Below the pieces are notes generated by a model, which made no database searches, was not told where the DNA came from, and saw nothing but the letters and a program-made list of their open reading frames with translations. 38,331 bases of DNA from Pedobacter sp. (lineage in GTDB: Bacteria; Bacteroidota; Bacteroidia; Sphingobacteriales; Sphingobacteriaceae), in contig JBAZCD010000001.1 in assembly GCA_041671205.1 (NCBI GenBank), positions 1 through 38,331 on the forward strand, read 5' to 3'. A program made the position numbers and the translations under genes. Every line of letters starts with the position of its first letter. The first letter of the stretch is position 1. Below, in pieces: positions 935 through 33,790 of the stretch.

Positions 935-1134
935 AGTTATTTTTTTAATACAAATACATATAAAACAATTGGTTTAAATATTCTATTTGGTTTTTGAAAA
1001 ATATCAATTATTCTTTTTATTTGAAAAATAATATCTTAAAGCCGGTACTTACCGTCTTTTTTGCTTGGCTCCCCCGGGTGGAGACAACACGTATCAGGGA
1101 ATGGATTAATCGCTATCTATTAACCAATCAATTA

Positions 1135-1428
1135 TTATTCTTGGATAATTGGTCTTTGGGCAATTACAACTATTGATTCAACCTGTTCACCAGGCATAGA
1201 CAGGGCAATTACACTCCGAATCTCCAAGTCTAGGTTACAAATAAATGACAGTCCAGAAGCGATATCTTCCCCACACATGTTAGAAGTCCTTTTACCTGTA
1301 AAAGGGTCTTCATGATGGCCAGTTGTTTCTAAGAGAAATATATTGCCTGGATATTGGGTTAAGTTAAACCTATGATTGCCTGATACTTGTTCACCTTCGG
1401 GCAAACGAGGGAAAAATTCTCTTGTCAT
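1135..1428 (-). CDS. Hypothetical protein
   Basis: 97-aa ATG ORF on the same strand as its neighbours; no motif recognised. Confidence 0.5.
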   Translation of the reverse strand: MTREFFPRLPEGEQVSGNHRFNLTQYPGNIFLLETTGHHEDPFTGKRTSNMCGEDIASGLSFICNLDLEIRSVIALSMPGEQVESIVVIAQRPIIQE

Positions 1429-1525
1429 ATATATTTATTATATCAAACAGTATCGCTTTAAAGTATGAAATGGCGGATGGGAGTCTATTAATTTACCAGT
1501 GGCGAGACATATGACTGACTTAAGG

Positions 1526-2338
1526 TTATTTGTATACTTCTGCCTCGGCCTTTGTAGTACATTCCTTTGAATAATTTGCCATTATTGCGACTCTTTGATC
1601 TTCAGTGATATTAAAATTACTCAAATGTGACTTTCTTTCATTAATACAGTCATTGTATATTTTGGCATATAACTCTTGTCTTTTAATATTTTGATCAATC
1701 TCCTCTACTTTAGCCTGTAACTTCTCGATTTCTTCCATATTTTCCTGAGGGACAGAAGCAGCGGTGGGTCCGATTTTTATTCTTTTAATATATATAGCTG
1801 GTGATGGTTTCGCAGTCGGAGTTGGCTGCATTATAATTTTGATATCTTGGATGGTAGCTTGCACTTCTTGAATTCGAGCATCGTTTGAAGCTAGTAGAGA
1901 TAACTGTTGGAGTGCTTCGGAATAGTTTTTGTTATGGTATGCGTCCATGCCTAGTTCATAGTGATTATCCGACCTTATCATTACTTGGGCTTTGTTTATT
2001 TTTGATTCTAAATCGCTATTTTTAAAACTTTTATGAATTCTTTCTGGAAGCCAGAATTTCTTGGCCGTTAGATATTCTTCAAGCGCGGAGGTATATTTGT
2101 TGTTCTTGTATTCCTTGTCCCCGTATTGTTCGTGTTTTTTTGAATAGGCCAGGGTAACACCCGAAGCTATGGCTATTAAGACAAGTATGATCACCAGTAT
2201 TTGCATGATTCTTGGTCTGAATAGATTAGATATTGAAATTCTGTACTTTATAGCTGTATTTTCGCCTATTTTTCCGCCACAATATTTACAATAAATGCTA
2301 GTACTTGATACTTTCTTACCGCAAAACGCACAAAACAT
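1526..2338 (-). CDS. Zinc-ribbon, single-TM, TPR-like helical protein
   Basis: N-terminal CxxCG...CxxCG, hydrophobic ILVIILVLIAIASGV, TPR-like 'GDKEYKNNKYTSALEEY' and 'HYELGMDAYHNKNYSEAL', Pro/Thr linker. Confidence 0.75.
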   Translation of the reverse strand: MFCAFCGKKVSSTSIYCKYCGGKIGENTAIKYRISISNLFRPRIMQILVIILVLIAIASGVTLAYSKKHEQYGDKEYKNNKYTSALEEYLTAKKFWLPERIHKSFKNSDLESKINKAQVMIRSDNHYELGMDAYHNKNYSEALQQLSLLASNDARIQEVQATIQDIKIIMQPTPTAKPSPAIYIKRIKIGPTAASVPQENMEEIEKLQAKVEEIDQNIKRQELYAKIYNDCINERKSHLSNFNITEDQRVAIMANYSKECTTKAEAEVYK

Positions 2339-2343
2339 AAGAC

Positions 2344-2580
2344 TTATTTTTCCTTTTTTAATTGATTTAATATTCGGGCTCCCCTAGCGTAACCGACTTT
2401 GAATCTTCGCTGAATTAGTGAGGCAGATATTTCATTACCTTCTTTGGCATATTTTTTGACATCTTCTAGGATTTCGTCATCTTCCCGATATTCAGTAAAA
2501 TTACATACAAGAAAATTCTCAATTCGTTTTAATCGTTTTTCTATACGGACAAGAATGGTTTGAACATTTTCATCTTTCAT
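2344..2580 (-). CDS. Stand-alone FtsK gamma (winged-helix) domain protein
   Basis: ISASLIQRRFKVGYARGARILNQL matches the FtsK-gamma signature S.S.LQRR..IGY.RAAR; no motor domain. Confidence 0.85.
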   Translation of the reverse strand: MKDENVQTILVRIEKRLKRIENFLVCNFTEYREDDEILEDVKKYAKEGNEISASLIQRRFKVGYARGARILNQLKKEK

Positions 2581-2619
2581 ATTTTCTTTTTAAACTTTTA
2601 ATTCAGAAATTATATTTTC

Positions 2620-3042
2620 CTATAGATTCTCTATAGATTTTTCTATGTCCTTTGTACTAGGGTAATAGGCCCAAATTGGCATAAAATCCCATTGTTGACC
2701 ATTATTGTCCCAACTTCGACAAAAAACATATCTAGGAGTATTTAAATACTCTGAGGCGAAATAGCACGTTAGATTCCTAGTAAAGATATATCCTCCGTTA
2801 TCAAAGAAGATTTGCGTATTTTTATTATCTACCAATTTCACATTTAGTTTATAGCAATCATCATTGGAATAATACGGAACTTTACAAACTTGTATTGTGT
2901 CTGTCCCTTTCCAAAAAGGCTTTTTCTCACCATTTATATAGTTGCTATAAATTCTGTTTGCCACCCAACAAAAAAGAATAATATAGATGATAAATTTAAG
3001 CATTCGCATTTTTAATGCTTTTATATAACCAATATCCTCCAT
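2620..3042 (-). CDS. Membrane-anchored or secreted Cys-containing hypothetical protein (true start probably ~3003-3009)
   Basis: Hydrophobic N-terminal segment FIIYIILFCWVA followed by four spaced Cys. Confidence 0.65.
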   Translation of the reverse strand: MEDIGYIKALKMRMLKFIIYIILFCWVANRIYSNYINGEKKPFWKGTDTIQVCKVPYYSNDDCYKLNVKLVDNKNTQIFFDNGGYIFTRNLTCYFASEYLNTPRYVFCRSWDNNGQQWDFMPIWAYYPSTKDIEKSIENL

Positions 3043-3409
3043 AGGCCATTATGGGAAGAATGAGGGGGGAGGCTCCACTATCCTCCGCGTTTTTGTTTGA
3101 GGCAATCCCGTCTGTAGGGGTAGGTGTGTTTCTGACAAAGAAAGGGGTACTTGAGGGAGGATTGTTGTCTTGATGAACTATAGGGTTTGTTATTTTCCTG
3201 GGCGGTATAGCTATTTCCTTTTTAACTGGTCTTTGAGCACATTCAGGGTAATAAGGTAGACAAGTCGCCGATAATCCGGTTCCGTCACAACAGCTACAAC
3301 CACACACCCCCTTATGGTGGGAGCAACAACCGGAACGGGCTTCAATTCCATAAACAGGAAAACTTAAGAATATTACAAAAAGTAAAATAAATGCGATAAA
3401 TATTTTCAT
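2996..3409 (-). CDS. Secreted Cys-rich protein with C-terminal TM
   Basis: Signal peptide, RSGCCSHHKGVCGCSCCDG motif, Pro/Thr-rich linker, terminal hydrophobic segment. Confidence 0.75.
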   Translation of the reverse strand: MKIFIAFILLFVIFLSFPVYGIEARSGCCSHHKGVCGCSCCDGTGLSATCLPYYPECAQRPVKKEIAIPPRKITNPIVHQDNNPPSSTPFFVRNTPTPTDGIASNKNAEDSGASPLILPIMAYGGYWLYKSIKNANA

Positions 3410-3528
3410 CTTGATTTTCTGACTTTTTCAATCTTAGATAATTCAATTTCCCAAATCGAATCGTCGTCTTCGGCATGACAAGTCCATTTGTTTTTGGAAT
3501 CCATATCACAATATTCAAATTAAAGGAA

Positions 3529-4065
3529 CTATTGGCTATCCAGCGCAGTTTGGAGAAGGGCTTTATTATATGAATTAGTTTTTTTTGTTTCGTCAATTGC
3601 TGAACGGTCTAAAAGTTGGTCAATAATTTCCAGGTCTAAATCCGAATTAACTTTATCAATTAGATTAATAGCCAAAGACATGTCGTTTTCTGATGCGGAA
3701 TCGGAGGCTAGGGCAATGTATGCTTTCCCCAACGAAATTTCGTCGTTTCCAAGTTTAACTAGCTGTGATCTTCCTTCTTTGCACGACAATGATACTATTT
3801 CCCAATCATATGTATAGTTTTCACAATCTAGTTTGCTTGATAGATCGAGAATGTCTTGACCATCAGAAGACATGTCTGAGCCTAATTTATCATATGAAAC
3901 TAAATCGTCTTTGTTAATATTTTCTACATACTGTTCAGCTTGTTGTTGCGACATACCTGTGTCCTTTGAAAAGTTCTTGGCAATGTCTGCTTTGCTAAGG
4001 CTGAAAACTGTACCGCCAATAACTAGTGTAATTACTCCTGTGATAATTCCACCTTTATTTGCCAT
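3529..4065 (-). CDS. Membrane-anchored hypothetical protein
   Basis: N-terminal TM GGIITGVITLVIGGTVF, acidic helical body. Confidence 0.7.
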   Translation of the reverse strand: MANKGGIITGVITLVIGGTVFSLSKADIAKNFSKDTGMSQQQAEQYVENINKDDLVSYDKLGSDMSSDGQDILDLSSKLDCENYTYDWEIVSLSCKEGRSQLVKLGNDEISLGKAYIALASDSASENDMSLAINLIDKVNSDLDLEIIDQLLDRSAIDETKKTNSYNKALLQTALDSQ

Positions 4066-4106
4066 ATAGTTCGATTTTAATTTTTAATATAAATGATATT
4101 TGTTAT

Positions 4107-4781
4107 CTATTTCCCTGATAAAATTCTGACTGACTTATTGCCCATAAATAATCTAAGAATTGGATTTTTTAGTCTATCTTGTGTTGGATGAAAAACCGTA
4201 AGCACCTCCATACTTTCTCTGGAAAAAGATTCTGCCGTATCAGCCTCCCAATCTAAAACATTCCAATACCACGTGTCGCATGTATTCAAATCTTCATTAC
4301 TTAAATTTGATGTTTCATAACAGTTAGCTAGTTTTTGTTCTGCAATTTTTTCATATTTTGAAATCATGCTGTTTGCATATCTAATACTAGATGTATAGTA
4401 ACTATGGACTTTTATCTGTACTTCTTGGTTTAGCTGGGCAACGTATTGCAGAGGTTCTGTTGACTGTGTCCATAAATCATTTGTATATAAATAGAAGTTG
4501 TGGAAAACGTTGGGTTTATCTTTTTTAACAATGTGCTCGCTATTAAACTTACTAATGTTATTTGCGTGTAGCATATTTAACATTATTTCATTTTCGATGG
4601 CCTCGAGAATTCTTTGCTTCTGTATTAATTCCTGAACTTGAACTGTAACCATGTTTACAAGTAAGCTGAATATGGCCCCAATTAGCAAACCACTCAAAAA
4701 CCCATCTATTTTTAGTTTCCTAAGTGGGGAAAAAATAACAAGTGGCGCTGAAAAGACTGCTTTTAAATTAAGCTTTGACAT
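4107..4781 (-). CDS. Single-TM hypothetical protein
   Basis: TM GFLSGLLIGAIFSLLV followed by a helical region. Confidence 0.7.
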   Translation of the reverse strand: MSKLNLKAVFSAPLVIFSPLRKLKIDGFLSGLLIGAIFSLLVNMVTVQVQELIQKQRILEAIENEIMLNMLHANNISKFNSEHIVKKDKPNVFHNFYLYTNDLWTQSTEPLQYVAQLNQEVQIKVHSYYTSSIRYANSMISKYEKIAEQKLANCYETSNLSNEDLNTCDTWYWNVLDWEADTAESFSRESMEVLTVFHPTQDRLKNPILRLFMGNKSVRILSGK

Positions 4782-5070
4782 TTATCTTTAATGGAGATAC
4801 TGCAATAAAAATTAATATTGAGCTTATTAAGTGAATAGAAACCAAACTTTGTTTTATTAAAAAAACTGGGGCTAGGGGGTCAAATAACATTCCTATAGCC
4901 GCAAAAACCAATACCAAGCCATGCACCATAGGTTTATGGAATATGGCAATATAAAGCAAAACGATAAAAATTACCAACCTTAAGAGTAGATAAAAACTAT
5001 AAGGCCAAAAAGTAGGGATAGCTAACAAAAGTAATATTCCATAACCAACGATAATACTTTTCATCTTCAT
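4768..5070 (-). CDS. Small integral membrane protein (DUF6804-like)
   Basis: About four TMs; 'PYSFYLLLRLVIF' and 'LFDPLAPVFL' resemble DUF6804. Confidence 0.65.
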   Translation of the reverse strand: MKMKSIIVGYGILLLLAIPTFWPYSFYLLLRLVIFIVLLYIAIFHKPMVHGLVLVFAAIGMLFDPLAPVFLIKQSLVSIHLISSILIFIAVSPLKINVKA

Positions 5071-5113
5071 TTAATCTCCTGTTGTTCAAATTATATACCT
5101 TTGGTAGTTTTTA

Positions 5114-5425
5114 TTACATCAATCCCTCATATCTCTGTTTCTGGTATTTAAGACCACAACATCTTCTACAACCTATATGATTGTGGATCTCAAAGAGAAT
5201 TCCTACTCGCTTGGAACATTCGGTACATACAAACCAATATCTTTCTCCGTACCTTGTCTTGGAGGTAGTTAGTTTAATCGGTTGGCCACAAACTTCTATT
5301 TGAGACTCTATTAGTTTCTGTTTGAGTTGTTTTATAGCTTGACGGACAAAATCATTGATATTAATTTTCCGACTCCACTCTACAACTCTAGAATCTCCTA
5401 AATCATTTGGCTTTATTGGTTTCAT
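5114..5425 (-). CDS. Zn-binding mobile-element protein
   Basis: RYGERYWFVCTECSKRV...GCRRCCGLKY..Q pattern of the type seen in integrated elements. Confidence 0.7.
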   Translation of the reverse strand: MKPIKPNDLGDSRVVEWSRKININDFVRQAIKQLKQKLIESQIEVCGQPIKLTTSKTRYGERYWFVCTECSKRVGILFEIHNHIGCRRCCGLKYQKQRYEGLM

Positions 5426-5570
5426 TGACTTGAACTAGCTGGTTTTGGCCAACAACGGCAGTGTCCGTTTTAATTTTTAACTGTAGGGGTGGCTGTTTAA
5501 AGGATCGAAGAGTCTGGATTGAAGCCAGAAAATGACGATTGGCGCGGTCTAGTTCCTTACTTAATAGCGA
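5403..5570 (-). pseudogene. Headless 3' gene fragment
   Basis: Open frame ...SKELDRANRHFLASIQTLRSFKQPPLQLKIKTDTAVVGQNQLVQVNETNKAK* with no start codon; overlaps the start of 5114-5425 and is cut at the DUF4145 gene end. Confidence 0.5.
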
Positions 5571-6276
5571 CTTTTAAAACCTTTTTATCGTCGGCAATTT
5601 TTTTAATCTCAGTAAGACGCTGCTTTCTCTCGTATCGATTTATATACCATTCCTCAATTAGTAATTCTATCAACCCGATTAATTTTGTTGCCTCTTCCGG
5701 CTCAACATCAATAATTACATTCACATCTAATTCCATATGCGCACCAATGTTTCCTACCTCGCGAACAGCATCAATTGCTGCCCAAACATCAGGATCAACT
5801 AAATCTTTTATTGCTTCAATCTCATTCTTTAGGGTCCATAATCCTTTATAATCTTGCGGCTTTTTTACTCCCCAAAAATCCCTAATCATTCCTTGAAGGG
5901 CTCTTCGTGAGAGGGTAGCTGAGGCTTTGGGGCTATCTTCTTTAATTTTGCATGATTCTTCATAGTCCTCAATTATTGCACTGGGCACAATATCCTTGGG
6001 GTAAATTTTCGCTTCCGAATCAGGAATAAGATGCCAAAAATGTGTTATGTTTTCCGTTTGAATTCTTCTACCTGATTCGCTAAGCCTCACCTCAAGTAAC
6101 CCCAATGTAAATGTAATTTTTTTACAAGCTGGGTTCGGGCACACGATAAACCTACCCATAACAGATTTATACCCATCAACACTTCGCACGTAATTCTCAC
6201 CCCTAACATCGTCAATATCATGATCCCCAATCGTTGATGGATGTTTGCAAAACGGACAAGTCCAATTTTGTCTCAT
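5557..6276 (-). CDS. DUF4145 (HEPN-like) domain protein with N-terminal Zn ribbon
   Basis: CPFC...CPNPAC; DYEES...SPKASATLSRRALQGMIRD; REVGNIGAH (RxxxNxxxH). Confidence 0.88.
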   Translation of the reverse strand: MRQNWTCPFCKHPSTIGDHDIDDVRGENYVRSVDGYKSVMGRFIVCPNPACKKITFTLGLLEVRLSESGRRIQTENITHFWHLIPDSEAKIYPKDIVPSAIIEDYEESCKIKEDSPKASATLSRRALQGMIRDFWGVKKPQDYKGLWTLKNEIEAIKDLVDPDVWAAIDAVREVGNIGAHMELDVNVIIDVEPEEATKLIGLIELLIEEWYINRYERKQRLTEIKKIADDKKVLKVAIK

Positions 6277-6325
6277 TATATTAAAAATATTAAAATCCTT
6301 TAATTTGGTATATTAAGCACCAACA

Positions 6326-6438
6326 GGCTCCCCCGCGAGGATTTCCCACAAGGGGACTAGGTACTTCGTACCGTCGCTTCTCATCCTCGGATAAATAATT
6401 AAAAAAGACGGCAAGAACCGTCTTTTTTAATTAGCTCC
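6326..6438. mobile_element. Empty tRNA-linked mini-unit U2 (~110 bp)
   Basis: GGCTCCCCCGCGAGGATT (18-nt tRNA 3' copy), a structured motif, a 16-bp inverted repeat, then the GCTCC core. Confidence 0.7.
6396..6433. terminator. Bidirectional intrinsic terminator-like hairpin
   Basis: TAATTAAAAAAGACGG / CCGTCTTTTTTAATTA, a perfect 16-bp inverted repeat with A/T tracts, abutting the att core. Confidence 0.8.
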
Positions 6439-6644
6439 CCAGACCAGCAGATGTTCCTGCTGTGCTCCTAGATAAAGAGGTTATGTCTCAAGTAAAGAAT
6501 CAGTTAGAGATGATAAAAGATGTAGAGGAAAATAAAGTCGTTAGTGACGATTCAAACATGGAGGTAATCAACTATGAAGCCAAACGAACTGTACGCTCTA
6601 AGAACAAGGGGCAAAAAGTACATCAGCCAGCAGCAACTTGCTAA
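6435..6644 (+). other. Orphan in-frame tail, probable native C-terminus of the element C integrase
   Basis: Open for 69 codons from the core CTC codon (LPRPADVPAVLLDKEV...AATC*), immediately preceded by TAG; same frame relative to the core as all three LSRs. Confidence 0.6.
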
Positions 6645-6759
6645 CTTGAGCGGGTATACTCGGGAATACATTTCTTATATCGAAACTGGTAAGGCCAAAC
6701 CCTCAAAAAGATGTTGGAAGACTCTGATAGATGCATTACTCGTGTCAAACTCAACTTAA
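6574..6759 (+). CDS. XRE-family HTH regulator
   Basis: ISQQQLANLSGYTREYISYIETGKAKPS; SD GGAGGT upstream. Confidence 0.85.
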   Translation: MKPNELYALRTRGKKYISQQQLANLSGYTREYISYIETGKAKPSKRCWKTLIDALLVSNST

Positions 6760-6821
6760 TAGATATTTTAATATCCTTATTTGAAGGAGGAAGAATAAAA
6801 ATATTCTTTAGTCAAAACTAC

Positions 6822-7253
6822 CTATAAGATTGAAGGGATTAATATAAAAGATAATAAAACCATGATACCTATCAGCACAATAACAACAATTGGTTTTATA
6901 TACCAAGGGCTTTTTACAAGTAATGGGGTAAATATAAAAATTGAAAGCAAGGGGACAATTAATGCGCCTATAGCTACCGCAACAATAAGTCTTTTTTCTC
7001 GGGCTTTGCTATCTTCGGCTAGTTGTACACTTATTTGACTTTGCTGTTCATCAGCGCGTTTTTTAACATCAGCCTTCTGCTCTGGTGATAGTTCTCTGCG
7101 CTGTCTTGTTTGGGCTAAATAGTTGTTGTTTTCATTTAAACTAGCCGCTTTTGCTTCTATTTTGTCTTTTGATAAAGCTTCAATATTTGCAAATAAAGTT
7201 AATAAGAGTACAAAAGAGAAAGTTAATTTTAGTATTTTTTTCAATGTTTTCAC
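6822..7253 (-). CDS. Membrane protein
   Basis: Signal-like N-terminus, charged helix, two C-terminal TMs. Confidence 0.65.
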   Translation of the reverse strand: MKTLKKILKLTFSFVLLLTLFANIEALSKDKIEAKAASLNENNNYLAQTRQRRELSPEQKADVKKRADEQQSQISVQLAEDSKAREKRLIVAVAIGALIVPLLSIFIFTPLLVKSPWYIKPIVVIVLIGIMVLLSFILIPSIL

Positions 7254-7307
7254 TCTTTTATTCTACTAAAAACAGGAAAATTTTACTAATTCGGCGAGTA
7301 GCCAATT

Positions 7308-7883
7308 TTAAACGCCAAATGTTTTAACATCGTTATCATCGAGAAAAACCCAGCGTTCGAGAAGTTTGGCAAAACGGTCACCTCTCCAATCATCCCCCTG
7401 ATTCTCGCTCCAGTTTTCCCAGGCACTTCCTGTATGTGGGCAGTCAGACCGTAAACCCTCGGTAATTTCTTTAAACGTATCAAAGGCATTTTCTGCCGCC
7501 ATTCCCAAAAAGATGAAATAAGGAGCATTGAGAAGTCCTCTGATAGAACATTCAACATTTTGATAAAGCTCAACGCTCCATGGACGGGCTTTCTTCTCTT
7601 TTTTCATCCTTTCCACGATTGTTTTTAGTGTATTCCTTGCAGTTTGTTCGGACTGATATGGATTTATTGCAACACTAACCATGTCAGGCAGACGAGACAT
7701 AATAGCAGCCAGGTCACTTGGCATTGGTTTATCCGTAAAATATTTTTGCCTTTGTTCTTCAACATATCTTTTTCTATCTTCCTTGGCAGCAGTAAACAAT
7801 GCTTTTAGACGATTTCCATCAAGAAGTTTAAAATAGGGAGTTCTACCAATCTCGTATATATTTTCCTCATTGTTCATAAGCAT
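7308..7883 (-). CDS. Hypothetical protein
   Basis: 191-aa ORF tightly following 7891-8271. Confidence 0.65.
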   Translation of the reverse strand: MLMNNEENIYEIGRTPYFKLLDGNRLKALFTAAKEDRKRYVEEQRQKYFTDKPMPSDLAAIMSRLPDMVSVAINPYQSEQTARNTLKTIVERMKKEKKARPWSVELYQNVECSIRGLLNAPYFIFLGMAAENAFDTFKEITEGLRSDCPHTGSAWENWSENQGDDWRGDRFAKLLERWVFLDDNDVKTFGV

Positions 7884-7890
7884 TTTACTA

Positions 7891-8271
7891 TCAACGGATA
7901 AAGAAGTTGAAAGAAAAGATTGCTGTTAGCCATAAAACGACATAAAACAGGTAAAACAATATTCGTACTGGAAATATTCTTAGTATACGGTGTCTACTGA
8001 GCCACCTATCCATTATTGCAAACACAATCATCATTAAAATAGTAATAATAACCGTCCTAACAATACCCACAACATCATAATCGTATGTTCCTGATGCACG
8101 AGCTTTCCTTATGGCTTCTTCCCCTATTCTGTTGGCATAATCCTGAGCCTCTTTTGCTTTTTCTGGCGATAGAGCAAAAATATGTGTTGGTAAAAAAATA
8201 CTTGCACCAGCCACAAAAGTAGTAAGCATAATAACTAAATTTATAACTTTGCTTTTTGACTGCTGTATCAT
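7891..8271 (-). CDS. Membrane protein
   Basis: Signal peptide (..IFA), LSPEKAKEAQDYA helix, two C-terminal TMs; same layout as 6822-7253. Confidence 0.7.
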   Translation of the reverse strand: MIQQSKSKVINLVIMLTTFVAGASIFLPTHIFALSPEKAKEAQDYANRIGEEAIRKARASGTYDYDVVGIVRTVIITILMMIVFAIMDRWLSRHRILRIFPVRILFYLFYVVLWLTAIFSFNFFIR

Positions 8272-8368
8272 ATATTTTTTACTCTTATTATTATAATCTC
8301 ATGAACCACCTTGAGGACATTATCATTTATGACATGGAATTGAGTCGAAACCACACCAGCGATAAAAC

Positions 8369-11952: not shown

Positions 11953-12124
11953 GATTGAATACGATTTTTCTAATATCTTCCATGCGATAACGACGGTCTC
12001 CAACACCACGTCTGGAACCAATTCTTACAGCCTTTAATCGGCCTTCTTTGTCCCATCGACGGAGAGTTTGCTCATTTACCTTGAGTATTTGTGCAGTTTG
12101 TTTTAGAGTCAGAAGTTCTTCCAT
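11942..12124 (-). CDS. MerR/excisionase-like HTH (HTH_17)
   Basis: LLTLKQTAQILKVNEQTLRRWDKEGRLKAVRIG..GDRRY; start reassigned to ATG 12124. Confidence 0.88.
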   Translation of the reverse strand: MEELLTLKQTAQILKVNEQTLRRWDKEGRLKAVRIGSRRGVGDRRYRMEDIRKIVFNHGH

Positions 12125-12234
12125 ATTTTCATTGCCTGAATTGAGTTTAATTATACTTAATTGCTTGTGGTTATGAAAGTGTCTAAGAACATCCAAGACA
12201 AAATATTGATGTGGTTTGATATCTAATAATATTG

Positions 12235-12263
12235 TTGACTCAATAAGTTAGTTTTGTTAAGCT
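12235..12263 (+). promoter_or_regulatory. Sigma70-like promoter
   Basis: TTGACT-17-TAAGCT. Confidence 0.55.
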
Positions 12264-12316
12264 GAATTTAGCTTTGAAAGAAGCCGAGTAAAAGTTTGAG
12301 TTTAAGTACCCTTTAC

Positions 12317-23838: not shown

Positions 23839-23839
23839 G

Positions 23840-24025
23840 TTAATAGAAAGAAAGGGTTGAAGTATTTTGCCACTTACCAGCCGTGGTTACTTCTTTTGCT
23901 TGAACTCTAGGTACAAAGGGTGCAACTTCTTGGAGCATTTTTTCATAACTAATCTTAGCTTCGTCAAATCGTTTTGACTGGCTTGCACTCATCTTGGGCT
24001 TAGTCTGACGATTAGTTTTTTTCAT
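23840..24025 (-). CDS. Small basic protein downstream of the protease
   Basis: 61-aa ATG ORF 17 nt after the protease stop. Confidence 0.55.
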   Translation of the reverse strand: MKKTNRQTKPKMSASQSKRFDEAKISYEKMLQEVAPFVPRVQAKEVTTAGKWQNTSTLSFY

Positions 24026-24042
24026 ATAAATACAGTCTACTC

Positions 24043-24930: not shown

Positions 24931-24997
24931 AAGCGTATTGTATCAAAAATTGATAAAATACGATAAACAAACATAAGTATTGAAGATGTAATGAACT

Positions 24998-25588
24998 ATG
25001 TCAAAATTATCAGATAAAAAACTAACAATAGCTGACCTAAAAAACGTAAAGGATTTCACGCCTGCACAGAAAGAGCAGGTAACTAATTTTGCAAAAAGTA
25101 TATCTAAGCTAGTTGATGGTATCCAATCACCAGCGAAGATAATGGCAAACCTTTACCAAGACCCACTAAAGAATATAGATATGTCTTGGGTTGCTGACGA
25201 AAGTAGGCGGAAAGCAGAAGAAGCCCGTCTCAGACGGTTACAGCTAGAAAAATTAGAACGAGAAATGGCAATAGATATGACACTACCAACTTATGACATT
25301 GTGGACTGCCTAATTAGCTTTCGTGGTAAGAAAATCCAAATACCACCAGATACCGACCAAGAAATGCTTTGTAAAGTCGTCTTGCGAAACAAAAACGCTA
25401 TGTCTAGGCGTTGGAATTGGGACGAAATAATTGAAGCTTGGGGCGATGTTCCAGAGAAAGATGACTGGCGTAAAGTCTACAACGCTGGCAGAGGCATAAA
25501 CGAGCAAGTTGAAAAAAAGACAACAATCAGCAATTTTCTTATTGTCAAAACGAAAACATTACAGTTGAACCCCGATTTTCTCCAATAA
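24998..25588 (+). CDS. Hypothetical protein with C-terminal winged-helix-like domain
   Basis: WNWDEIIEAW...RKVYNAGRGINEQV...LQLNP. Confidence 0.7.
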   Translation: MSKLSDKKLTIADLKNVKDFTPAQKEQVTNFAKSISKLVDGIQSPAKIMANLYQDPLKNIDMSWVADESRRKAEEARLRRLQLEKLEREMAIDMTLPTYDIVDCLISFRGKKIQIPPDTDQEMLCKVVLRNKNAMSRRWNWDEIIEAWGDVPEKDDWRKVYNAGRGINEQVEKKTTISNFLIVKTKTLQLNPDFLQ

Positions 25589-25770
25589 AAGTTAGCTAAC
25601 TTTAGCTAAATCCCTGTTTTATATCCTATCGGTAATGAGTACCGAAAATGTAACGACAAGTAAACAGGGATACGCCCTTTCCTCAGATGAACTCAGCAAA
25701 TTGACTGAGTTTTTTTCGTTGCTCATCAAGATTGACAGAAAGAACAAAAACAGAAAGGAGGTGTTAAAAA

Positions 25771-25914
25771 ATGCAAGTTCAAAAACCAATGGATGAACTA
25801 GATAAATGGTTGGTCGAAAAACTCAGAGAAGTCTTTGAGCAAATGTATAGAAAACAGTTATCAGAAGCAATTAAACGTGGTATTAAAGCCAAAAAGTTGC
25901 AGAAAAAACTATGA
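25771..25914 (+). CDS. 47-aa protein resembling serine recombinase helix E
   Basis: MQVQKPMDELDKWLVEKLREVFEQMYRKQLSEAIKRGIKAKKLQKKL; SD AAGGAGGTG; ATGA overlap with the next gene; below the ORF-track cutoff. Confidence 0.75.
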   Translation: MQVQKPMDELDKWLVEKLREVFEQMYRKQLSEAIKRGIKAKKLQKKL

Positions 25915-26129
25915 AAATCAAAGCATTCCGAAAACTAGTAAGTCGAGAGCAAGCTTATCAAATCATTATCAACGACAAAATTAGCGACATTTGCCACGCT
26001 CGCAATACAGATACGCTCGAAGAGTTGCTTATGTTTGGCTGGGTTTCTTTGGAAAAGTGGTCGGACAAAGAACTCGAGGAATACATAACTGAGTTACTTA
26101 TTGAAAACCAACCTAACGGGAAAATATGA
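25911..26129 (+). CDS. Hypothetical acidic protein
   Basis: ATGA-coupled on both sides. Confidence 0.7.
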   Translation: MKIKAFRKLVSREQAYQIIINDKISDICHARNTDTLEELLMFGWVSLEKWSDKELEEYITELLIENQPNGKI

Positions 26130-26422
26130 AAGCCATATTAAGCGAAGTCCAAATAACACCCATTAAAGCCCAAGACGGCTTAGTAGGTTTTGCGAGCTTC
26201 GTTTATAACAACAGCTTTTATTTTGGGTCAATCGGTATCTATACCAGACCGCAAGGTGGGTATCGATTGACCTACCCCACTCGGAAGGGCGCGAACGGTA
26301 ATTTTAATATCTTTCATCCGATTAATCGAGAAGTGGCAGAAGAAATTGAAAAAGTAATTATTTCCAAGTTTGAAGATGTAACGAAAATGTATGTTGGACA
26401 CAATAGTATTAACACTAAGTAA
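26126..26422 (+). CDS. SpoVG-like nucleic-acid-binding protein
   Basis: SEVQI.P....GLVGFAS......F....I...YP.RK......IFHPINRE....IE. Confidence 0.8.
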   Translation: MKAILSEVQITPIKAQDGLVGFASFVYNNSFYFGSIGIYTRPQGGYRLTYPTRKGANGNFNIFHPINREVAEEIEKVIISKFEDVTKMYVGHNSINTK

Positions 26423-27554
26423 AAGTATGTTTGTAATTTACGAACCAGATAGGTTTGAACCATCGGCAAAGCTCATTTTGGACGAGAAGTCGTCTTTGGG
26501 TGGTCGTGGGTATACACCAGCTAAACAGAACCCCACTAGCCGAGAATTAAAGAACGGTTACTACAAGCCACGACTTACTCTCACAAACCGTTACAATCAC
26601 ACAGGGAGACGAGAAGCCAGCTTAAAAATCGAGCTCTCTTTACCCAAACTTCTTTTTGGAAATAACTTTGATGAACTAACCCAAAACGACTTTACGCCAG
26701 TTGTCACACTCTTGAAATCAAGGCTAAGAGAAATGGGTGTGTTGGTTTTTACCCAAGTTTTAGAAAATGCCCCTGTTTCAGCCATTCACTATTCAAAAAA
26801 TATCCCACTTACGGATGGAACAACTCCTCATTACCTCATAAGCAAAATTAAAGAGGCTAATATCTCGCTTGCACTTGATGTAAACCAAACCGATTACCGC
26901 AACGACGGTCATAGCTATAAATGGCACAGCAATTCGTATGAAGTAGCTTTTTATGACAAGCTCAAAGACCTTGAAATGGCTAACAAAAGCGAGAAACGGG
27001 CAATAGAGAACGATAACGCCCTACAGCTCAATCTTTTTGGAACATTCAAAGAAAGAAAACGGATAGAGGTAATGCGAATGGAAATAAGACTAAACAAACG
27101 CCAGAAAATAGGACAACTTTTTCGTACACTTGGTATCCAATCTGAATTGACCCTAAAAAACCTTTTTAACCCTATAATCGCTCAACAGGTGTTACTTCAT
27201 TACCTAGACGAAATTGAAAGTAAACGGCTACCCCTATTCGATTACAAACCGACGAGCCCTAAGTCATTATTGGCTGACCTCGTAATCAATAACCCAAATA
27301 TAGGAATACGCAAAACAATGCAACTCTATGGTTTAAGACAAGTTTTTAACGATACAACCCCTCGTGAACTAAGAAATATGTTCAGCAAGTATGGTCAACG
27401 AAGCTGGTATAGGCTTATTGCAGAAGCAAAAACAGTAAGGCTACCAGCTACAAAAAGCCCTCTCGGGATAGTCCGTGAACATTTGACACGCTTTGAACCA
27501 TTAAAACTAGTTGATTTTCAAGGTACAATGTTAAATAATGATAAATATAACTAA
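26391..27554 (+). CDS. Rolling-circle replication initiator/relaxase-like protein (Rep_trans, gene II/X type)
   Basis: MLDTI...IELSLPKLLFGNN...VSAIHYSKN...AFYDK...MRMEIRL. Confidence 0.75.
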   Translation: MLDTIVLTLSKSMFVIYEPDRFEPSAKLILDEKSSLGGRGYTPAKQNPTSRELKNGYYKPRLTLTNRYNHTGRREASLKIELSLPKLLFGNNFDELTQNDFTPVVTLLKSRLREMGVLVFTQVLENAPVSAIHYSKNIPLTDGTTPHYLISKIKEANISLALDVNQTDYRNDGHSYKWHSNSYEVAFYDKLKDLEMANKSEKRAIENDNALQLNLFGTFKERKRIEVMRMEIRLNKRQKIGQLFRTLGIQSELTLKNLFNPIIAQQVLLHYLDEIESKRLPLFDYKPTSPKSLLADLVINNPNIGIRKTMQLYGLRQVFNDTTPRELRNMFSKYGQRSWYRLIAEAKTVRLPATKSPLGIVREHLTRFEPLKLVDFQGTMLNNDKYN

Positions 27555-27555
27555 T

Positions 27556-27729
27556 ATGACACAAGAGCAGTATTACTCTATCGAAGAAGTCGCCAAAACA
27601 TTAAAGGTTGCCTATCTGACTGTTTACCGATGGATACAAGCTAAACGCCTCGTAGCCCTGAAGGCTGGCAAGCAATACCGAATAAAAAAAGCAGATTTAG
27701 ATACCTTTTTAAGGGTTCACAAAAAGTAA
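27556..27729 (+). CDS. Excisionase-like HTH (HTH_17)
   Basis: YYSIEEVAKTLKVAYLTVYRWIQAKRLVALKAGKQYRI. Confidence 0.88.
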   Translation: MTQEQYYSIEEVAKTLKVAYLTVYRWIQAKRLVALKAGKQYRIKKADLDTFLRVHKK

Positions 27730-30700
27730 TGAATATGAAAAACCAAGAGCCAAAAGAAAAAAATGGTTTGAACTTCATAAAAGAAATTGCTAAATACTTT
27801 ATGGATTTCCTAGAAACGGATTTCCATAAGCATCGACTTCCGCGTCGAGCTATCAAGTTTAGGAACAATGATAATTTACTTATCGGATTAAATCTTCAAA
27901 AGTACCCTTCATTCAGCAACTTGGCATCAAAACTCATCAGTAAAGGCTTTGAAAAAGATATTTTGAGTAAAGTCGGAAAAGGAGTCTATAAAACAAATCT
28001 TCCCAAGAACTTACTCGATTTAATCAAGCTCCAAGTAGGCAAGATAAGCAATGCAGAAATTAACGCCATTACTGAAAAGGTCGCCAGTGAAATAGAAAAA
28101 GCGGGCACTTTATACGCAAAAGAATACGATGTAGCACTTACTAACTCGGTAGAAGAAGCCACAAAAATTATACGCAGCGAACTCGTTCACCCGTTTGTAG
28201 AAAGCATCGAAAAACCCCTACAAAATCTTAATCTCGGCGACGAAGATAACGTATACCTGATTGAAGAAGAGCTAACATCGGTAATCCTTCGTTTGTTAGA
28301 GAACAAGATTTCAGAAGTATTAAATCTCATCATAGCTCAGGAAAAAGTTAACCTTACTAAAGAGCTCAAGTCGGTCTTTATACCACAGGATGTGAAGGGC
28401 AATCTCGCCTCGTTTTTTGAAAACCTCCAAGTGGCTGACTTGTTTCTGGAATTATTTGAAATGGAGCGCAACAAAACTATTTTAGATAAGCAGGACTTTT
28501 ATCTTTATTTTGGTGATATATCTTTCAACAACAATAAATACCCGATTTTTTACATCCCCTTTGCTACAACAAGGGATGGAGATACTCTAAATATAGAGTT
28601 TGATTCACAGGTGTACATAAACAAAAAAGCGCTTGAGTTTATCGTACAAGAACACAATATACAAAAAGGGACAAAGGGCAGTTTACAGACAATATCAGAG
28701 CGCATTGTATATTTGTCTCAACATCAGGATGATTTCCCCCAAATCATCAATGGCATATTAAATGAACTCACTCATTTTTTTGAACTTGAAGGGACAGTTG
28801 GCTTCTCAAATGGTGAACCTACAATCGCTCGAGGTGCATCTGTACGGATTTCTAATAGTAGTTATATCTGCTTATTTGATAAGTCCGACGAGGCATTGGT
28901 TAATGACTACGAAGAAATTTTGCAACAATTAACTCAAGAGGGTGGTGACCTTGCTGAAATCTTCAATAAACTGATAGACGACTTTATTAGAAACAACCCA
29001 GAACCGTCTAACCCAGAAGTTGAGAGTGAATGGGACAACACTGAGACACCAGACAGGCTTGTATATCCAAGTCCAATCCCGCTTAATAGTGAACAGCGCC
29101 AAATCTTGTCTGCTATTCGTAAAGATGGTTGTAATTATCTGGTAGTTTCAGGACCACCAGGAACAGGAAAAAGTCATACCATCACCGCCATCATCTTCGA
29201 TGCAATCTTGAAAAATCAGTCGGTATTGGTACTTTCTGATAAAAAGGAGGCGTTGGATGTTGTCGAAGATAAGATTACACAGACAATGAATAAAGTTCGC
29301 TACGATAAGAACTTTCAAAATCCTATTTTAAGACTTGGCAAAACTGGCAATACTTATAATTCAATTCTCGCTCAAAGTGCTATTGAAGGTATTAAAACAC
29401 ATCATCGCGCTGTAAAAAAAGACTACGACTCGATAGAAGAAACTATTACAAAGTCTGGCAACTCTTTAAGAGAAGACATTGAAGCAGAGATTGTCGCCTA
29501 CAGTGATATTAACATCAAAGAAATTCACGAGTTTTTTGATTTAGAGCTTTACTTTAACGAAAAGGATTTAATCTTCGACCTTGACGAATTGGCACAACAA
29601 AATGAAGCAGCCATTGAACTTGGGGAATTACGAAGCTCTCTACAACAAATTAAGGGCACATTTACTTCTAATGAAACACTGAAGCTATTTGAGCTTCTTG
29701 CAGTAAATCCTAAGAGCATAAAAACTCTCGATGATTACGAAAGCCTTTTGCAGTTCTTGGTAATGGCGCTCGAAGGCGTGCAAAAAGTAAAAACGTCTTT
29801 CTCTAACAAAGTTACTACCATAAATAAATTTACACAACTTACTTCAAAAGACTTGCAGGAGCTAGAACACTTCATTCAAGAGTATTCAAAACTAAAGCTT
29901 TGGGCAATCGGTTATCTCTTCACCAAAAAACAGGCAGAAGAATTAGATGTCAGTTTCAAGAAAAAACTTATCCATACCACATTCTCCAATCCTCACGACC
30001 AGCTCCAAGAACTCAAAGACGTATACGAAGTGTTTAGTTTTGCTCAAAAACTTGGCGACGAGATAAACGAAAAAAGTAAAAGGGCTTTTGACTACATTAC
30101 GCTTGCTCACAAGCTTCTTACCGATGAAACGCTAACACAAACAGTCGAGACACTCATCGCTTTGAACGGAGACGTCGAGTATCTCAAGGAGATTATTGGG
30201 AAATACCCGAAGACAGCTGGAAAGATTGGTATCAACATCGACCAATTCGCCACAATAATAAGCAACCGAGTTATAGATACTGTTGAATTAGAGTTTGATA
30301 AGCAAATAAGGTATTTGAACTTAGACCAAAAAGTAAGCAGAGATTTTTCAAATATCCACGAGTTAAATTATGCAGCTCGTATGAAGCAGATAGAAGATTT
30401 AGTTACTACTCAAGCAACATATCTTCTTGACGGTCGGTTAATAGATTTCTACGAACATAATCGTAGTGATGCCCAAACGTTGCGGAACATCATTAAAAAT
30501 AAACAAAGATTTCCAAGAGACGAGTTTAAGAAGCTGAAGGAAGCGTTTCCGTGTATTTTGGCAGGCATTCGAGATTACGCAGAGTATATCCCATTAGAGC
30601 CAGAACTATTTGATTTAGTAGTGATTGATGAAGCATCACAAGTAAGCATAGCGCAAGCTTTTCCTGCTCTCTTGCGGGCAAAAAAGGTGTTAATTCTTGG

Positions 30701-32288
30701 AGATAAAAAACAGTTTAGCAACATTAAAGCAGCGCAAGCACGCGGTGATACCAACCGTGAATACCTCAATGGATTGAATGCTAGTTTTAGGGCTAACATT
30801 TCCACGGATGCAATAAAGCTAGAGAGACTTCATAAGTTCAACATTAAAACATCTATTCTCGAATTCTTTGAGTTCATCAGTAACTACAATATCCAGTTAC
30901 TAAAGCATTTTAGAGGCTATAAGGAAATCATTTCATATTCAAATAAATACTTCTACCAAGATAGTTTGCAGGTAATGAAAATTCGCGGAAAGTCCATAGA
31001 CGAAGTTATTAAATTCTCATATGTTAAAACCACTTCAGCCGATGAACTTTATCCGAATACCAATGTTAAGGAAGTTGAATTTATTATCTCAGAACTTAAA
31101 CGATTAAAGGATGAAGATAAAGCAATAAGTGTTGGCATCATTACACCACACACAAACCAACAGAAGTTATTGGTAGAAATGATAGGAAAAATGCCAGAGT
31201 GGGATTATTTCCAAGATAAATTACAACTCAAGATAATGACATTCGATACGTGTCAAGGTGAAGAGCGCGACACCATCTACTACTCAATGGTAGCGTCCCC
31301 TGACAGCGACAAACTTTGGGGCGTGTTCATTAAAGACTTGAGCAATGTTGACATTGAAGAGGATGGACAGATAAAAGCACAACGTTTGAATGTGGGATTT
31401 AGCCGTGCCAAAGAGTGCGTTCATTTCGTGTTGAGTAAGCCCCTTGAGGATTTTGCAGGCTCTGCTGGAGAGGCGTTGAGACATTACAAATATATGTTAG
31501 GTGAAGCTAGAAAAGAACACGACGTTTCAGAGGTTGATGAAAAGTCCAAGATGGAACCAGAAGTTCTGAATTGGTTTTATCAAACTAAATTCTGGAAAGA
31601 GCATAAAGACTCTATTGAATTTATGCCTCAGTTTGAAATAGGAAAATATCTCAAACAGTTAGACCGAACATATACCCATCCAGCCTACAAGGTTGATTTT
31701 CTTCTCATATATACCGACGAACGACACAAAGAACACAAAATCATTATCGAATATGATGGTTTTAGAGAACACTTCAAAGAGGTAGATGAAGTAAATGAGT
31801 TCAACTATAAGAATTATTATTCTGACGATGACGTATATCGTCAGAAAGTATTAGAAAGCTATGGCTATAAGTTTTTACGAATTAATAAGTTCAATAGCGG
31901 AAAAAATCCGATAGCTAGTATTGACGATAGAATTGGAAACTTACTAAAAAAACCAGAAAGCGCTAATTCTCTTCTCGAAAACATACACGGCACGATTGAG
32001 GGTCTGCAAAACGGCGAAATGAAAGAATGTCCGAAATGCAAAGAAGTAAGAGAGTACAAAGATTTTAGAGACCCAGATTTAATTACTGGATATGGGCGAT
32101 TTTGTTGCCATTGCAAGGGCTATACGTTGGTTGAAAAGCCTGCGAGTAATAATACTCAAGAAAGCCCCGCTTTGAATGATAAGAACTGTCCACGATGTAG
32201 CTCCCCTATGGTTTTAAGAAATGGTCGTAGGGGTAAGTTTTATGGTTGTTCAAAGTTTCCCTACTGTAAAGGAACAAGAAATTACTAA
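27729..32288 (+). CDS. SF1 (UPF1/DNA2-like) helicase with C-terminal Vsr/REase-like nuclease and Zn ribbons; probable anti-phage protein
   Basis: LNSEQ, GPPGTGKS, IDEASQ, GDKKQ, HFR, TPHTNQ, QGEERD, RLNVGFSRAK; YKVDF...IEYDG; CPRC..PMVLR.GR.GKFYGCS.FP.C topoisomerase-type Zn finger. Confidence 0.9.
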   Translation: MNMKNQEPKEKNGLNFIKEIAKYFMDFLETDFHKHRLPRRAIKFRNNDNLLIGLNLQKYPSFSNLASKLISKGFEKDILSKVGKGVYKTNLPKNLLDLIKLQVGKISNAEINAITEKVASEIEKAGTLYAKEYDVALTNSVEEATKIIRSELVHPFVESIEKPLQNLNLGDEDNVYLIEEELTSVILRLLENKISEVLNLIIAQEKVNLTKELKSVFIPQDVKGNLASFFENLQVADLFLELFEMERNKTILDKQDFYLYFGDISFNNNKYPIFYIPFATTRDGDTLNIEFDSQVYINKKALEFIVQEHNIQKGTKGSLQTISERIVYLSQHQDDFPQIINGILNELTHFFELEGTVGFSNGEPTIARGASVRISNSSYICLFDKSDEALVNDYEEILQQLTQEGGDLAEIFNKLIDDFIRNNPEPSNPEVESEWDNTETPDRLVYPSPIPLNSEQRQILSAIRKDGCNYLVVSGPPGTGKSHTITAIIFDAILKNQSVLVLSDKKEALDVVEDKITQTMNKVRYDKNFQNPILRLGKTGNTYNSILAQSAIEGIKTHHRAVKKDYDSIEETITKSGNSLREDIEAEIVAYSDINIKEIHEFFDLELYFNEKDLIFDLDELAQQNEAAIELGELRSSLQQIKGTFTSNETLKLFELLAVNPKSIKTLDDYESLLQFLVMALEGVQKVKTSFSNKVTTINKFTQLTSKDLQELEHFIQEYSKLKLWAIGYLFTKKQAEELDVSFKKKLIHTTFSNPHDQLQELKDVYEVFSFAQKLGDEINEKSKRAFDYITLAHKLLTDETLTQTVETLIALNGDVEYLKEIIGKYPKTAGKIGINIDQFATIISNRVIDTVELEFDKQIRYLNLDQKVSRDFSNIHELNYAARMKQIEDLVTTQATYLLDGRLIDFYEHNRSDAQTLRNIIKNKQRFPRDEFKKLKEAFPCILAGIRDYAEYIPLEPELFDLVVIDEASQVSIAQAFPALLRAKKVLILGDKKQFSNIKAAQARGDTNREYLNGLNASFRANISTDAIKLERLHKFNIKTSILEFFEFISNYNIQLLKHFRGYKEIISYSNKYFYQDSLQVMKIRGKSIDEVIKFSYVKTTSADELYPNTNVKEVEFIISELKRLKDEDKAISVGIITPHTNQQKLLVEMIGKMPEWDYFQDKLQLKIMTFDTCQGEERDTIYYSMVASPDSDKLWGVFIKDLSNVDIEEDGQIKAQRLNVGFSRAKECVHFVLSKPLEDFAGSAGEALRHYKYMLGEARKEHDVSEVDEKSKMEPEVLNWFYQTKFWKEHKDSIEFMPQFEIGKYLKQLDRTYTHPAYKVDFLLIYTDERHKEHKIIIEYDGFREHFKEVDEVNEFNYKNYYSDDDVYRQKVLESYGYKFLRINKFNSGKNPIASIDDRIGNLLKKPESANSLLENIHGTIEGLQNGEMKECPKCKEVREYKDFRDPDLITGYGRFCCHCKGYTLVEKPASNNTQESPALNDKNCPRCSSPMVLRNGRRGKFYGCSKFPYCKGTRNY

Positions 32289-32290
32289 TA

Positions 32291-33790
32291 ATGAAAGCAA
32301 TAATCTTAGCTAGAGTATCAGATAAAAAGAAACAGGACTCAAATGAGGCTCAGGTTCTTCGTGTATCTGATTACATAAAACATAAAGATTTAACGGTATG
32401 GAAAACTTACGAGATAGAAGAGTCCTCGACTAAGGGCGACAGAGAGAAATTCCAAATGGTTGTAGCAGAAATTGAGCAATCAAGCGAACCTATCGCTCTT
32501 GTTGTCGATACAGTTGATAGGCTTCAAAGAAGTTTCAAGGAGTCCGTACAGTTGGACGACCTACGAAAAGCTGGAAAACTCGAAATACATTTTTACAGGG
32601 AAAGTCTGGTAATCAACCAAAATTCAAATAGCTCAGACTTATTACGTTGGGATATGGCGGTAATGTTCGCTAGAAGCTACGTTCTTCAACTAAGTGATAA
32701 CGTCAAAAGGAAACAAGAACAAATGTTAAGAAGTGGTATATACCCAAGCCGACCACCTTGCGGTTATAAGCGAGTGCCTATTGCCAAGGATAAAACAGAA
32801 ATAGTTATTGATGACTATGCGTCAAAAATAGTTCAAAAAGCCTACGAATGGTACGCAACAAGTAGTTTCTCAATGGACTTGCTACGCAAAAAGCTAAAGG
32901 AAGAATACGGGGTCAACTGGTCAAAAGGCTTTACTGACAAGGTATTAAAAGACGATTTTTACTACGGTCTTATGACTTGGAACAAAGATAAGTCAAACGA
33001 AAAAACGTATCCGCACAATTACACACATATAATTGAGAAATCTTTATTTGACCAAGTACAGAAAATAAAGGCAGGCTTCAACAAAAAACCCTTTAAGTAT
33101 GCAGGCAAGTCATATATTTACCGAGGATTGCTACGATGCGGTCATTGTGGGCTAGCTGTAACCCCAGAGAAACACAAAGGACACGTTTACTACCATTGCA
33201 CCCAATACAATGGCAAACACGGGGCTGACTGGCTAAGAGAGGAAACTATAACCGAACAGATAGGCAATGTTTTTAAGAGGCTACAAGTCCCTGACTATAT
33301 TTTGGAACAAATAGTCAATGCTCTACAAATCAGCCACGAAGGTAAAACCGATTTTAGAGAGACACAATATAAGCAACTAACAGAAGAGCACGAGATATAC
33401 ACCAAACGCCTCGAAAAAATCTACATTGATAGATTAGACGGGCGTATTACTGACGATGAGTATGACAAGTTCTATCAGTCATTCCGTGAGAAAGTAGCTG
33501 AGATAGATACCCGACTTAGTATTCTTCAAGATGCTGACGACAACTACTACATCACGGCTAGATACCTGTTAGAGCTGGCAAATCGGGCTTATGAGCTTTT
33601 CAAAAGTTCAGAAGTTGAAGAAAGAAGGCAGTTAATCAAGCTCGTACTATCGAACCTTAGGGTAGAAGACAAATTAGTCCGATACGATGCGATAAAACCA
33701 TTCGACACAATCTTAAATTATGCCGAACGTCAAGCTTGGCTCCCCCGCGAGGATTCGAACCTCGAACCGACCGCTTACAGGGATCCCTAA
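32291..33790 (+). CDS. Large serine recombinase (element A integrase); C-terminus read from tRNA/intron antisense
   Basis: ILARVS, VDRLQR, PPCGY, FYYG, CGHCG...YYHC; ends WLPREDSNLEPTAYRDP. Confidence 0.95.
   Translation: MKAIILARVSDKKKQDSNEAQVLRVSDYIKHKDLTVWKTYEIEESSTKGDREKFQMVVAEIEQSSEPIALVVDTVDRLQRSFKESVQLDDLRKAGKLEIHFYRESLVINQNSNSSDLLRWDMAVMFARSYVLQLSDNVKRKQEQMLRSGIYPSRPPCGYKRVPIAKDKTEIVIDDYASKIVQKAYEWYATSSFSMDLLRKKLKEEYGVNWSKGFTDKVLKDDFYYGLMTWNKDKSNEKTYPHNYTHIIEKSLFDQVQKIKAGFNKKPFKYAGKSYIYRGLLRCGHCGLAVTPEKHKGHVYYHCTQYNGKHGADWLREETITEQIGNVFKRLQVPDYILEQIVNALQISHEGKTDFRETQYKQLTEEHEIYTKRLEKIYIDRLDGRITDDEYDKFYQSFREKVAEIDTRLSILQDADDNYYITARYLLELANRAYELFKSSEVEERRQLIKLVLSNLRVEDKLVRYDAIKPFDTILNYAERQAWLPREDSNLEPTAYRDP

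Follow-up and report, generated by a model that had tools for sequence, protein, structure and literature searches.

Exchange of C-terminal tails between divergent large serine integrases in a tandem island array at a tRNA-Asn gene, and a possible role of the tails as degrons

The window analyzed here, i.e., the whole stretch of 38,331 nucleotides from contig JBAZCD010000001.1 (assembly GCA_041671205.1, deposited as Pedobacter sp.), contains a tandem array of islands at an intron-containing tRNA-Asn gene. Three large serine recombinases (LSRs), referred to as integrases A, B and C, each run through the same core, GCTCC, with CTC as an in-frame leucine codon, into a short C-terminal tail. The core is the antisense of tRNA positions 70–74 and was found at 1068, 6434, 15898, 23739 and 33739, where the open frames to its right comprise 35, 69, 24, 32 and 16 amino acids (aa), respectively (starting at 1069, 6435, 15899, 23740 and 33740). 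From left to right, the array consists of a flank, a segment starting at 300, element E (1068), a mini-element (6327), elements C (6434), B (15898) and A (23739), and the tRNA (33739). A first-pass annotation, made from the sequence alone, had described three divergent LSRs crossing the cores at 15898, 23739 and 33739, and the leucine codons and the tails were as it had given them; the divergence was confirmed as well, at 20–23% pairwise identity among A, B and C. The features on which the argument depends are the following:

32291–33790, plus strand: integrase A, 499 aa, the last 16 of which (33740–33790) are tRNA antisense
22039–23838, plus strand: integrase B, 599 aa including tail T1
14387–15973, plus strand: integrase C, 528 aa including tail T4, with a possible upstream TTG start at 14333
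23740–23838, plus strand: tail T1, 32 aa, native to A and now on integrase B
15899–15973, plus strand: tail T4, 24 aa, native to B and now on integrase C
6435–6644, plus strand: T6-like tail, 69 aa, probably native to C and currently unfused
1069–1176, plus strand: orphan 35-aa open frame
33737–34068, minus strand: target tRNA-Asn(GTT), whose anticodon loop holds a group I-like intron of ~257 nt
33739–33743, plus strand: core at the junction of the tRNA and element A, with the crossover within its first 4 bases
23739–33738, unstranded: element A, 10.0 kb, with tail T1, an SDH-type protease, SpoVG, a 387-aa hypothetical protein, a 1519-aa helicase and integrase A; ends taken from homologs
15898–23738, unstranded: element B, 7.8 kb, with tail T4, SMEK/DUF2326 (Lamassu-like) defence genes, an HTH_36 replication-initiator-like gene and integrase B
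6434–15897, unstranded: element C, 9.5 kb

The tRNA gene was recovered by ARAGORN with introns allowed; neither ARAGORN without the intron search nor Rfam at gathering level returned a tRNA in the window. The group I model RF00028 matched the intron with 37 bits (E 4e-8), under its gathering score. The earlier proposal of a tRNA site shared by the elements stood, though it had overlooked two repeats of 17 bp, at 300 and 6327, that copy the tRNA 3′ end. Many related loci also carry insertions of 180–650 nt at the place of the tRNA-Asn intron, and ARAGORN often mis-calls them as Thr, Tyr or Val.

The window contains 23 copies of GCTCC where 14 would be expected, and 32, 25, 23 and 12.5% of random frames are free of stops over 24, 32, 35 and 69 codons, respectively. 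Since both the core count and the odds of an open tail are close to chance, the window alone is weak evidence for a cascade of tail exchanges, and the case rests on homologs.

All three integrases are complete LSRs with Resolvase, Recombinase and Zn-ribbon domains (Pfam). The top Foldseek matches of the structural model were LSRs, including Bxb1, phiC31 and 4KIS, and matches in a sequence search of the PDB were confined to the catalytic domains. No further resolvase was present among the 37 open reading frames (ORFs) scanned in the window, so there is no second small recombinase of the kind of DsiA, discussed below. In the AlphaFold prediction for a natural protein with an A-family body and tail T1, the body was confident to about residue 480 (predicted local distance difference test, pLDDT, near 90) and the tail was helical (residues 483–488 and 498–510), with pLDDT <50 on an alignment that is shallow in this region. 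The predicted body lies wholly ahead of the crossover, and a tail swap should leave the integrase fold intact.

Six related integrases (L010, L011, L014, L020, L023 and L064) were mosaics when compared with 32291–33738: identity to A was 33–40% over the first 160 residues and mostly 73–87% in the DNA-binding parts, which suggests a swapped catalytic domain with the same target and tail.

Breakpoints were examined in 66 genome loci of A relatives. At these loci, the sequence breaks at the core, mostly at tRNA-Asn, which is the target of close relatives; distant relatives break in the same register at tRNAs for Gln, Glu, Asp, Trp, His or Ser. Thirty end-pairs have only 4 bases in common, and 57 of 63 rows, which span several tRNAs, have the GC unchanged. 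Together with the far-end tails described below, these breakpoints bear out the earlier claim that the attachment site attP lies inside the 3′ end of each integrase gene; as read from the aligned junctions, the crossover falls within 4 bases (tRNA positions 71–74) and in the same reading frame in all clades. No clear peak emerged when attP was inspected for dyad symmetry around the central dinucleotide. Among the contigs of four runs, one from run X1 ends exactly at 33739, which is a weak hint.

Tail types were counted in the best 120 homologs of each enzyme, using a regular-expression rule for tRNA-antisense ends. By this rule, such ends were present in 94 of the 118 parsed A homologs, 98 of 119 for B and 67 of 112 for C, the protein of the window itself being counted in the B and C sets and a few C tails of tRNA type having escaped the rule. 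The longer tails group into families, of which T1, T2 and T3 are each found on A, B and C bodies. A T1 profile search returned 179 proteins; among the 150 listed, T1 was preceded by A-like (15), B-like (6) or C-like (9) fragments, by unrelated sequence (72) or by fewer than 15 residues (44), and 4 were repeat proteins. The first-pass annotation had named homologs of B and C that carry the same tails as here as an argument against its own model. Such cases were few, with 3 of 118 other parsed B homologs carrying the 23740-type tail T1 and 1 of 111 other C homologs clustering with the 15899 tail, and most homologs ended in tRNA antisense. This is the rate that tandem arrays would give, and a minority that the swap model itself predicts.

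Native tails were then surveyed at the far ends of the elements in the 66 A loci and in 40 B and C regions, with T1 and T3 profiles built from proteins outside the surveyed loci. For integrases at least 56% identical to A, T1 was detected in 11 of 21 rows and no other family was; 6 of the rows lacking a far-end tail had at least 8 kb of flank and 4 were short. For B relatives (at least 55% identity), the 15899 family (T4) was present in 7 of 10 rows, near-identical in L077 and L078, and no tail in 3. The close C relatives (at least 45%) had T6 in 4 of 6 and the 48 rows of distant A relatives had T5 in 11, T1 in 2 and T2 in 1, of which the T5 and T6 counts are partly circular, their profiles having been built from the loci that they score. 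Distant C relatives had T3 in 7 of 16. Detected far-end tails agreed with the integrase clade (A 11/11, B 7/7, C 4/4), in contrast with fused tails, which were mixed: close B relatives carry T3 twice, T1 twice and T6 once. In the metagenome loci (71 of 80 readable), T1 was again the sole family at the far ends of close A relatives, being detected in 8 of 21 rows (8/8 of those detected), at least three of which repeat genome loci. No relative of T1 or of A was found in viral contigs, and relatives of the genome bin that holds the window (G000) gave distant matches in 2 of 60, which were uninformative.

Taken as sequence comparisons, these surveys establish that tails belong to the element on their right. 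They agree with the first-pass annotation in that the native tail is left at the far end of its element and tail families follow the element right of the junction rather than the fused integrase, with C carrying B's tail, B carrying A's and A carrying that of the tRNA. Against this, about half of the loci yielded no far-end tail.

Two tails had been reported as orphans, with no integrase in front. This description still applies to the frame at 1069, for which no homolog was found. The tail at 6435 scored E 0.004 (rank 5 of 6118, after four C-locus tails) against a profile built from the far ends of three C loci, in which it was not itself included, and is most likely C's own, an assignment with modest support. 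Its placement as a T3 tail was rejected (1.6 bits); T6 fits instead.

Selection on T1 was analyzed with 11 copies found by blastn alone, i.e., on DNA only. The ratio of non-synonymous to synonymous polymorphism (pN/pS) was 0.15 in codons 11–30, compared to 1.4 and 2.4 in the other frames, and pairwise values were 0.08–0.20 for the tail and 0.17–0.33 for the last 100 body codons. The ratios for T4, T5 and T6 were 0.31, 0.49 and 0.39, in protein-ascertained sets of 4–8 copies. Beyond about base 90, the end of the conserved peptide, T1 copies are no more alike at the DNA level than background. T1 has no conserved start codon and could therefore be made solely as a fusion. The expectation that tails would be conserved as protein was thereby confirmed, and the codon patterns demonstrate purifying selection at the protein level.

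The ends of the tails differed from their interiors, which resemble background in composition. Ala was the last residue in 32 of 126 native tails, compared to 11 of 351 host ORFs (3%) and 5 of 214 tRNA-tailed integrases, and the last three residues were uncharged in 79%, 39% and 41%, respectively. In line with this, 13 of 59 locus tails (22%) ended in Ala vs. 173 of 3740 random core-anchored ORFs (4.6%). In 128 held-out T1 ends, some of which may stop at contig ends, Ala was last in 20 and within the last three in 47, and the last three were uncharged in 99; a control taken eight residues earlier in the same proteins gave 6, 9 and 70.

Five Microgenomates genomes were surveyed for proteolytic systems. 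Transfer-messenger RNA (tmRNA) was present in 5/5, Lon in 5/5 and FtsH in 4/5, and neither ClpX nor ClpP was over the cut-off in any of the five (0/5 each); ClpXP was accordingly rejected as the protease for these hosts. ARAGORN predicted 28 tmRNA tags in 34 loci, some of 27–32 residues, with 22 of 28 ending in Ala. Tags of Microgenomates tmRNAs (L072–L076, L117–L145; G061–G065) were variable and often long, with aromatic/Ala end motifs. In Mycoplasma, a long tag is used with Lon. According to PMC11986505, acidic C-termini are poor substrates for both Lon and ClpXP, and hydrophobic motifs are preferred by Lon.

These features raise the reading, whose chances we regard as about even, that the tail is a C-terminal degron, present on excised and displaced integrases and lost beside the tRNA. 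Integration would replace the integrase tail by tRNA antisense or by the tail of the next island. The circle-encoded integrase would be tagged and short-lived, with Lon or FtsH as the candidate protease because ClpXP was not found, and its short life would limit re-integration after excision. The tRNA-proximal copy would be untagged and stable, and so the form able to excise, and a displaced copy would be re-tagged by the newcomer's tail and kept low. All of these states would keep the catalytic fold. Should every tail be a degron, an excised and a displaced integrase would be functionally alike, leaving two states, and the cascade would be a by-product of the common crossover register. A degron at the C-terminus that is removed through attP would have a precedent, given the repressor of mycobacteriophage BPs, whose Int is also tagged (PMC3694055).

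Several observations weigh against this reading. The likeness to tmRNA tags is incomplete, tails having a median tag-profile score of −3.8, between those of tags (+8.9) and background (−7.7). There is no enrichment at T6 ends (n = 4), and the first set of T1 ends has Ala in only 2 of 22. Related tails are not independent of one another, and p-values overstate the bias. The conserved T1 core of 30 codons lies upstream of a variable end, and a pure terminal degron needs no such core; a frameshift is present in one T1 copy (L071). The five genomes of the protease survey are incomplete, and none is that of this host. Finally, looking for circle junctions, as had been proposed earlier, revealed neither a circle junction nor an empty-site joint in the contigs of four runs, and terminal repeats were absent from 71 metagenome contigs.

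A different role is conceivable for that conserved core, namely that the tail is a structural or directionality module which, through its amphipathic core, docks on its cognate integrase (at the coiled coil or the zinc domain) and favours attP × attB synapsis. The circle form would then integrate and the tail-less form would excise or be weak, as with Mx8 IntP/IntX. The clade-specific tails, the core of 25–30 residues, selection as strong as that on the body and the two predicted helices all fit this, and in Mx8 a tail swap lowers activity (PMC4701971). Tails of different clades are nevertheless unrelated and range from about 12 to 61 aa (12–24 within T4), the tail is modelled with far lower confidence than the body on its shallow alignment, and the body alone matches the solved LSRs. 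We consider docking possible, at clearly lower probability than the degron, with which it is compatible. The tail could also have no protein role, the attP arm being conserved as DNA and the open frame merely supplying a stop codon. The first ~10 tail codons do overlap the expected recombinase binding arm, and such open frames are common by chance. This is very improbable, since the lowest pN/pS is found past codon 10, the two alternative frames contain stops and have ratios around or over 1, DNA similarity drops to background at the end of the conserved peptide, and the C-terminal residue bias recurs in several unrelated families; the rival is largely refuted, and the tail as att-arm DNA alone was rejected by pN/pS.

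The first-pass annotation had favoured a sensor of three states (excised, proximal, displaced), in which swapped tails give a distinct, selected output. The three sequence states do exist and are common, and the frame is kept among enzymes of about 20% identity. Yet the same register holds for relatives at Gln, Glu, Asp, Trp and His tRNAs, which would not meet, so it can be explained by inheritance, and nothing indicates that foreign tails act unlike native ones; such a sensor seems unlikely. Returning to the degron, its broadest form is tentative and more doubtful than the degron itself: widespread tRNA-targeting serine integrases may use the att site as a proteolytic switch, with unrelated tails having converged on tags for the ClpXP-less Lon/FtsH tmRNA pathway of Patescibacteria. 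Owing to the common reading frame, each newcomer would put its own tag on the integrase of the island that it displaces, and the latest arrival alone would keep a stable enzyme, ready for excision. If true, the sequence of arrivals would decide which island is free to leave, and arrays of defence islands would ratchet up.

The left part of the array is made up of three further features:

1068–6326, unstranded: element E, inferred to be a cargo island that lacks an integrase and ends on the right in a vestigial att arm
6327–6433, unstranded: mini-element, 107 bp, with a displaced 17-bp tRNA 3′ end and a long terminator-like hairpin
300–1067, unstranded: segment between a 17-bp tRNA 3′ copy (300–316) and the core at 1068, with a histidine phosphatase gene; probably a T-loop-type insertion

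The stretch from 1068 to 6434 was divided in two because of the 17-bp tRNA 3′ copy at 6327; this copy and that at 300 extend to the T-loop. The ORFs of element E contain no recombinase, and its right arm resembles, on reading, an LSR C-terminal arm. A second copy of the 107-bp mini-element, with different flanks, was present in runs X1 and X2, and no homologs of the mini-elements were found in the fetched loci. Both 6327–6433 and 300–1067 begin with a similar A-rich hairpin arm, and like cassettes seem to lie behind integrases in L028, L189, L204, L210 and L211; no enzyme that would mobilise them was found. The layout suggests arrival in the order E, mini-element, C, B and A, each newcomer entering the intact tRNA and pushing the others outward.

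Cargo genes include SMEK plus DUF2326 (Lamassu/PDC-M68-like) at 17259–20228, the 1519-aa helicase (Mokosh/PDC-S37-like, defence-like) at 27729–32288 and DUF4145 (PD-T7-4-like) at 5557–6276. Element C contains small HTH genes and, at 8369–12021 on the minus strand, overlapping genes for 229 and 988 aa with no Pfam or PADLOC match, the smaller being nuclease-like by eye. Four histidine-phosphatase genes lie around the array (416–934, 34214–36967), one of them fused to an HTH domain.

In the 3.2-Mb bin G000, which belongs to another group, has relatives of mostly 2–5 Mb and also contains an intron-less tRNA-Asn and another sigma-70 factor, the window is the longest contig. The RpoD of the window is 75% identical to that of a Shapirobacteria locus and 43% to the other sigma-70 of the bin. 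Because of this Microgenomates-type RpoD and of named homologs that are mostly from Patescibacteria, the window is probably a mis-binned contig of Microgenomates, i.e., of an ultra-small Patescibacterium. Long tmRNA tags and tag turnover based on Lon/FtsH are suggested for this group.

No paper on this Patescibacteria integrase family was found in a search of the main texts of open-access papers. In their available text, PMC12884075 and the tycheposon preprint do not describe tail exchange, and that of the preprint mentions neither attP nor C-termini. The first-pass annotation named attP inside int of Mx8 and SSV1 as an analogy and knew of no described frame-conserved cascade among unrelated LSRs; novelty of the concept was not supported, since the layout is already published for DsiB, the rumA ICEs and Mx8. 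In the Dehalococcoides ssrA islands (McMurdie 2011, PMC3146451), tandem islands lie at one structural-RNA gene, the 3′ end of the serine integrase gene dsiB always overlaps attL, the stop codon falling within the neighbouring island or the RNA antisense, and integrase-less islands are also present, all as here; its authors speculate that full function is limited to the circle or to copies whose neighbour provides the 3′ fragment. DsiB islands differ in their target (ssrA, encoding tmRNA, with a ~20-bp repeat and T-loop insertion, vs. the tip of tRNA-Asn and a 4–5-bp core here) and in having one integrase family within a six-gene module with DsiA, whereas here enzymes of 20–23% identity exchange conserved tails. 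DsiB tails are reported as divergent, without tail families, a selection test or a degron proposal.

In streptococcal integrative and conjugative elements (ICEs) at rumA (PMC4701971), att also lies inside the serine integrase gene and integration exchanges the C-terminus, but the target is protein-coding, the frame changes and the text available contains no tandem cascade. Mx8 IntP/IntX and archaeal SSV-type elements (PMC4701971, PMC8371274) likewise have attP inside the integrase gene, tRNA targets and an altered enzyme, and chimeric integrases among co-resident elements have been proposed for them. Unlike the present enzymes, they are tyrosine recombinases; Mx8 loses 112 residues and SSV is cut before the catalytic domain, in contrast to a short appendage after a complete fold. 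In BPs (PMC3694055), integration removes a C-terminal degradation tag with attP in a gene, and Int is tagged; there, attP is in the repressor gene, the protease is of ClpXP type and the tag is proven, while in the present array attP is inside the integrase gene, the hosts examined had no ClpXP over the cut-off and the tag is inferred.

For the mining of recombinases from integrated copies, these results imply that the wrong C-terminus is picked, about 60–80% of entries ending in tRNA antisense and others in a neighbour's tail. The degron reading would provide a candidate rule for direction control by serine integrases that cut their own genes, and for why defence arrays build up at one tRNA. 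Beyond the layout shared with DsiB, the rumA ICEs and Mx8, what the sequences examined here add is a three-step cascade of unrelated enzymes, tails traced to their owners and evidence of selection on them.

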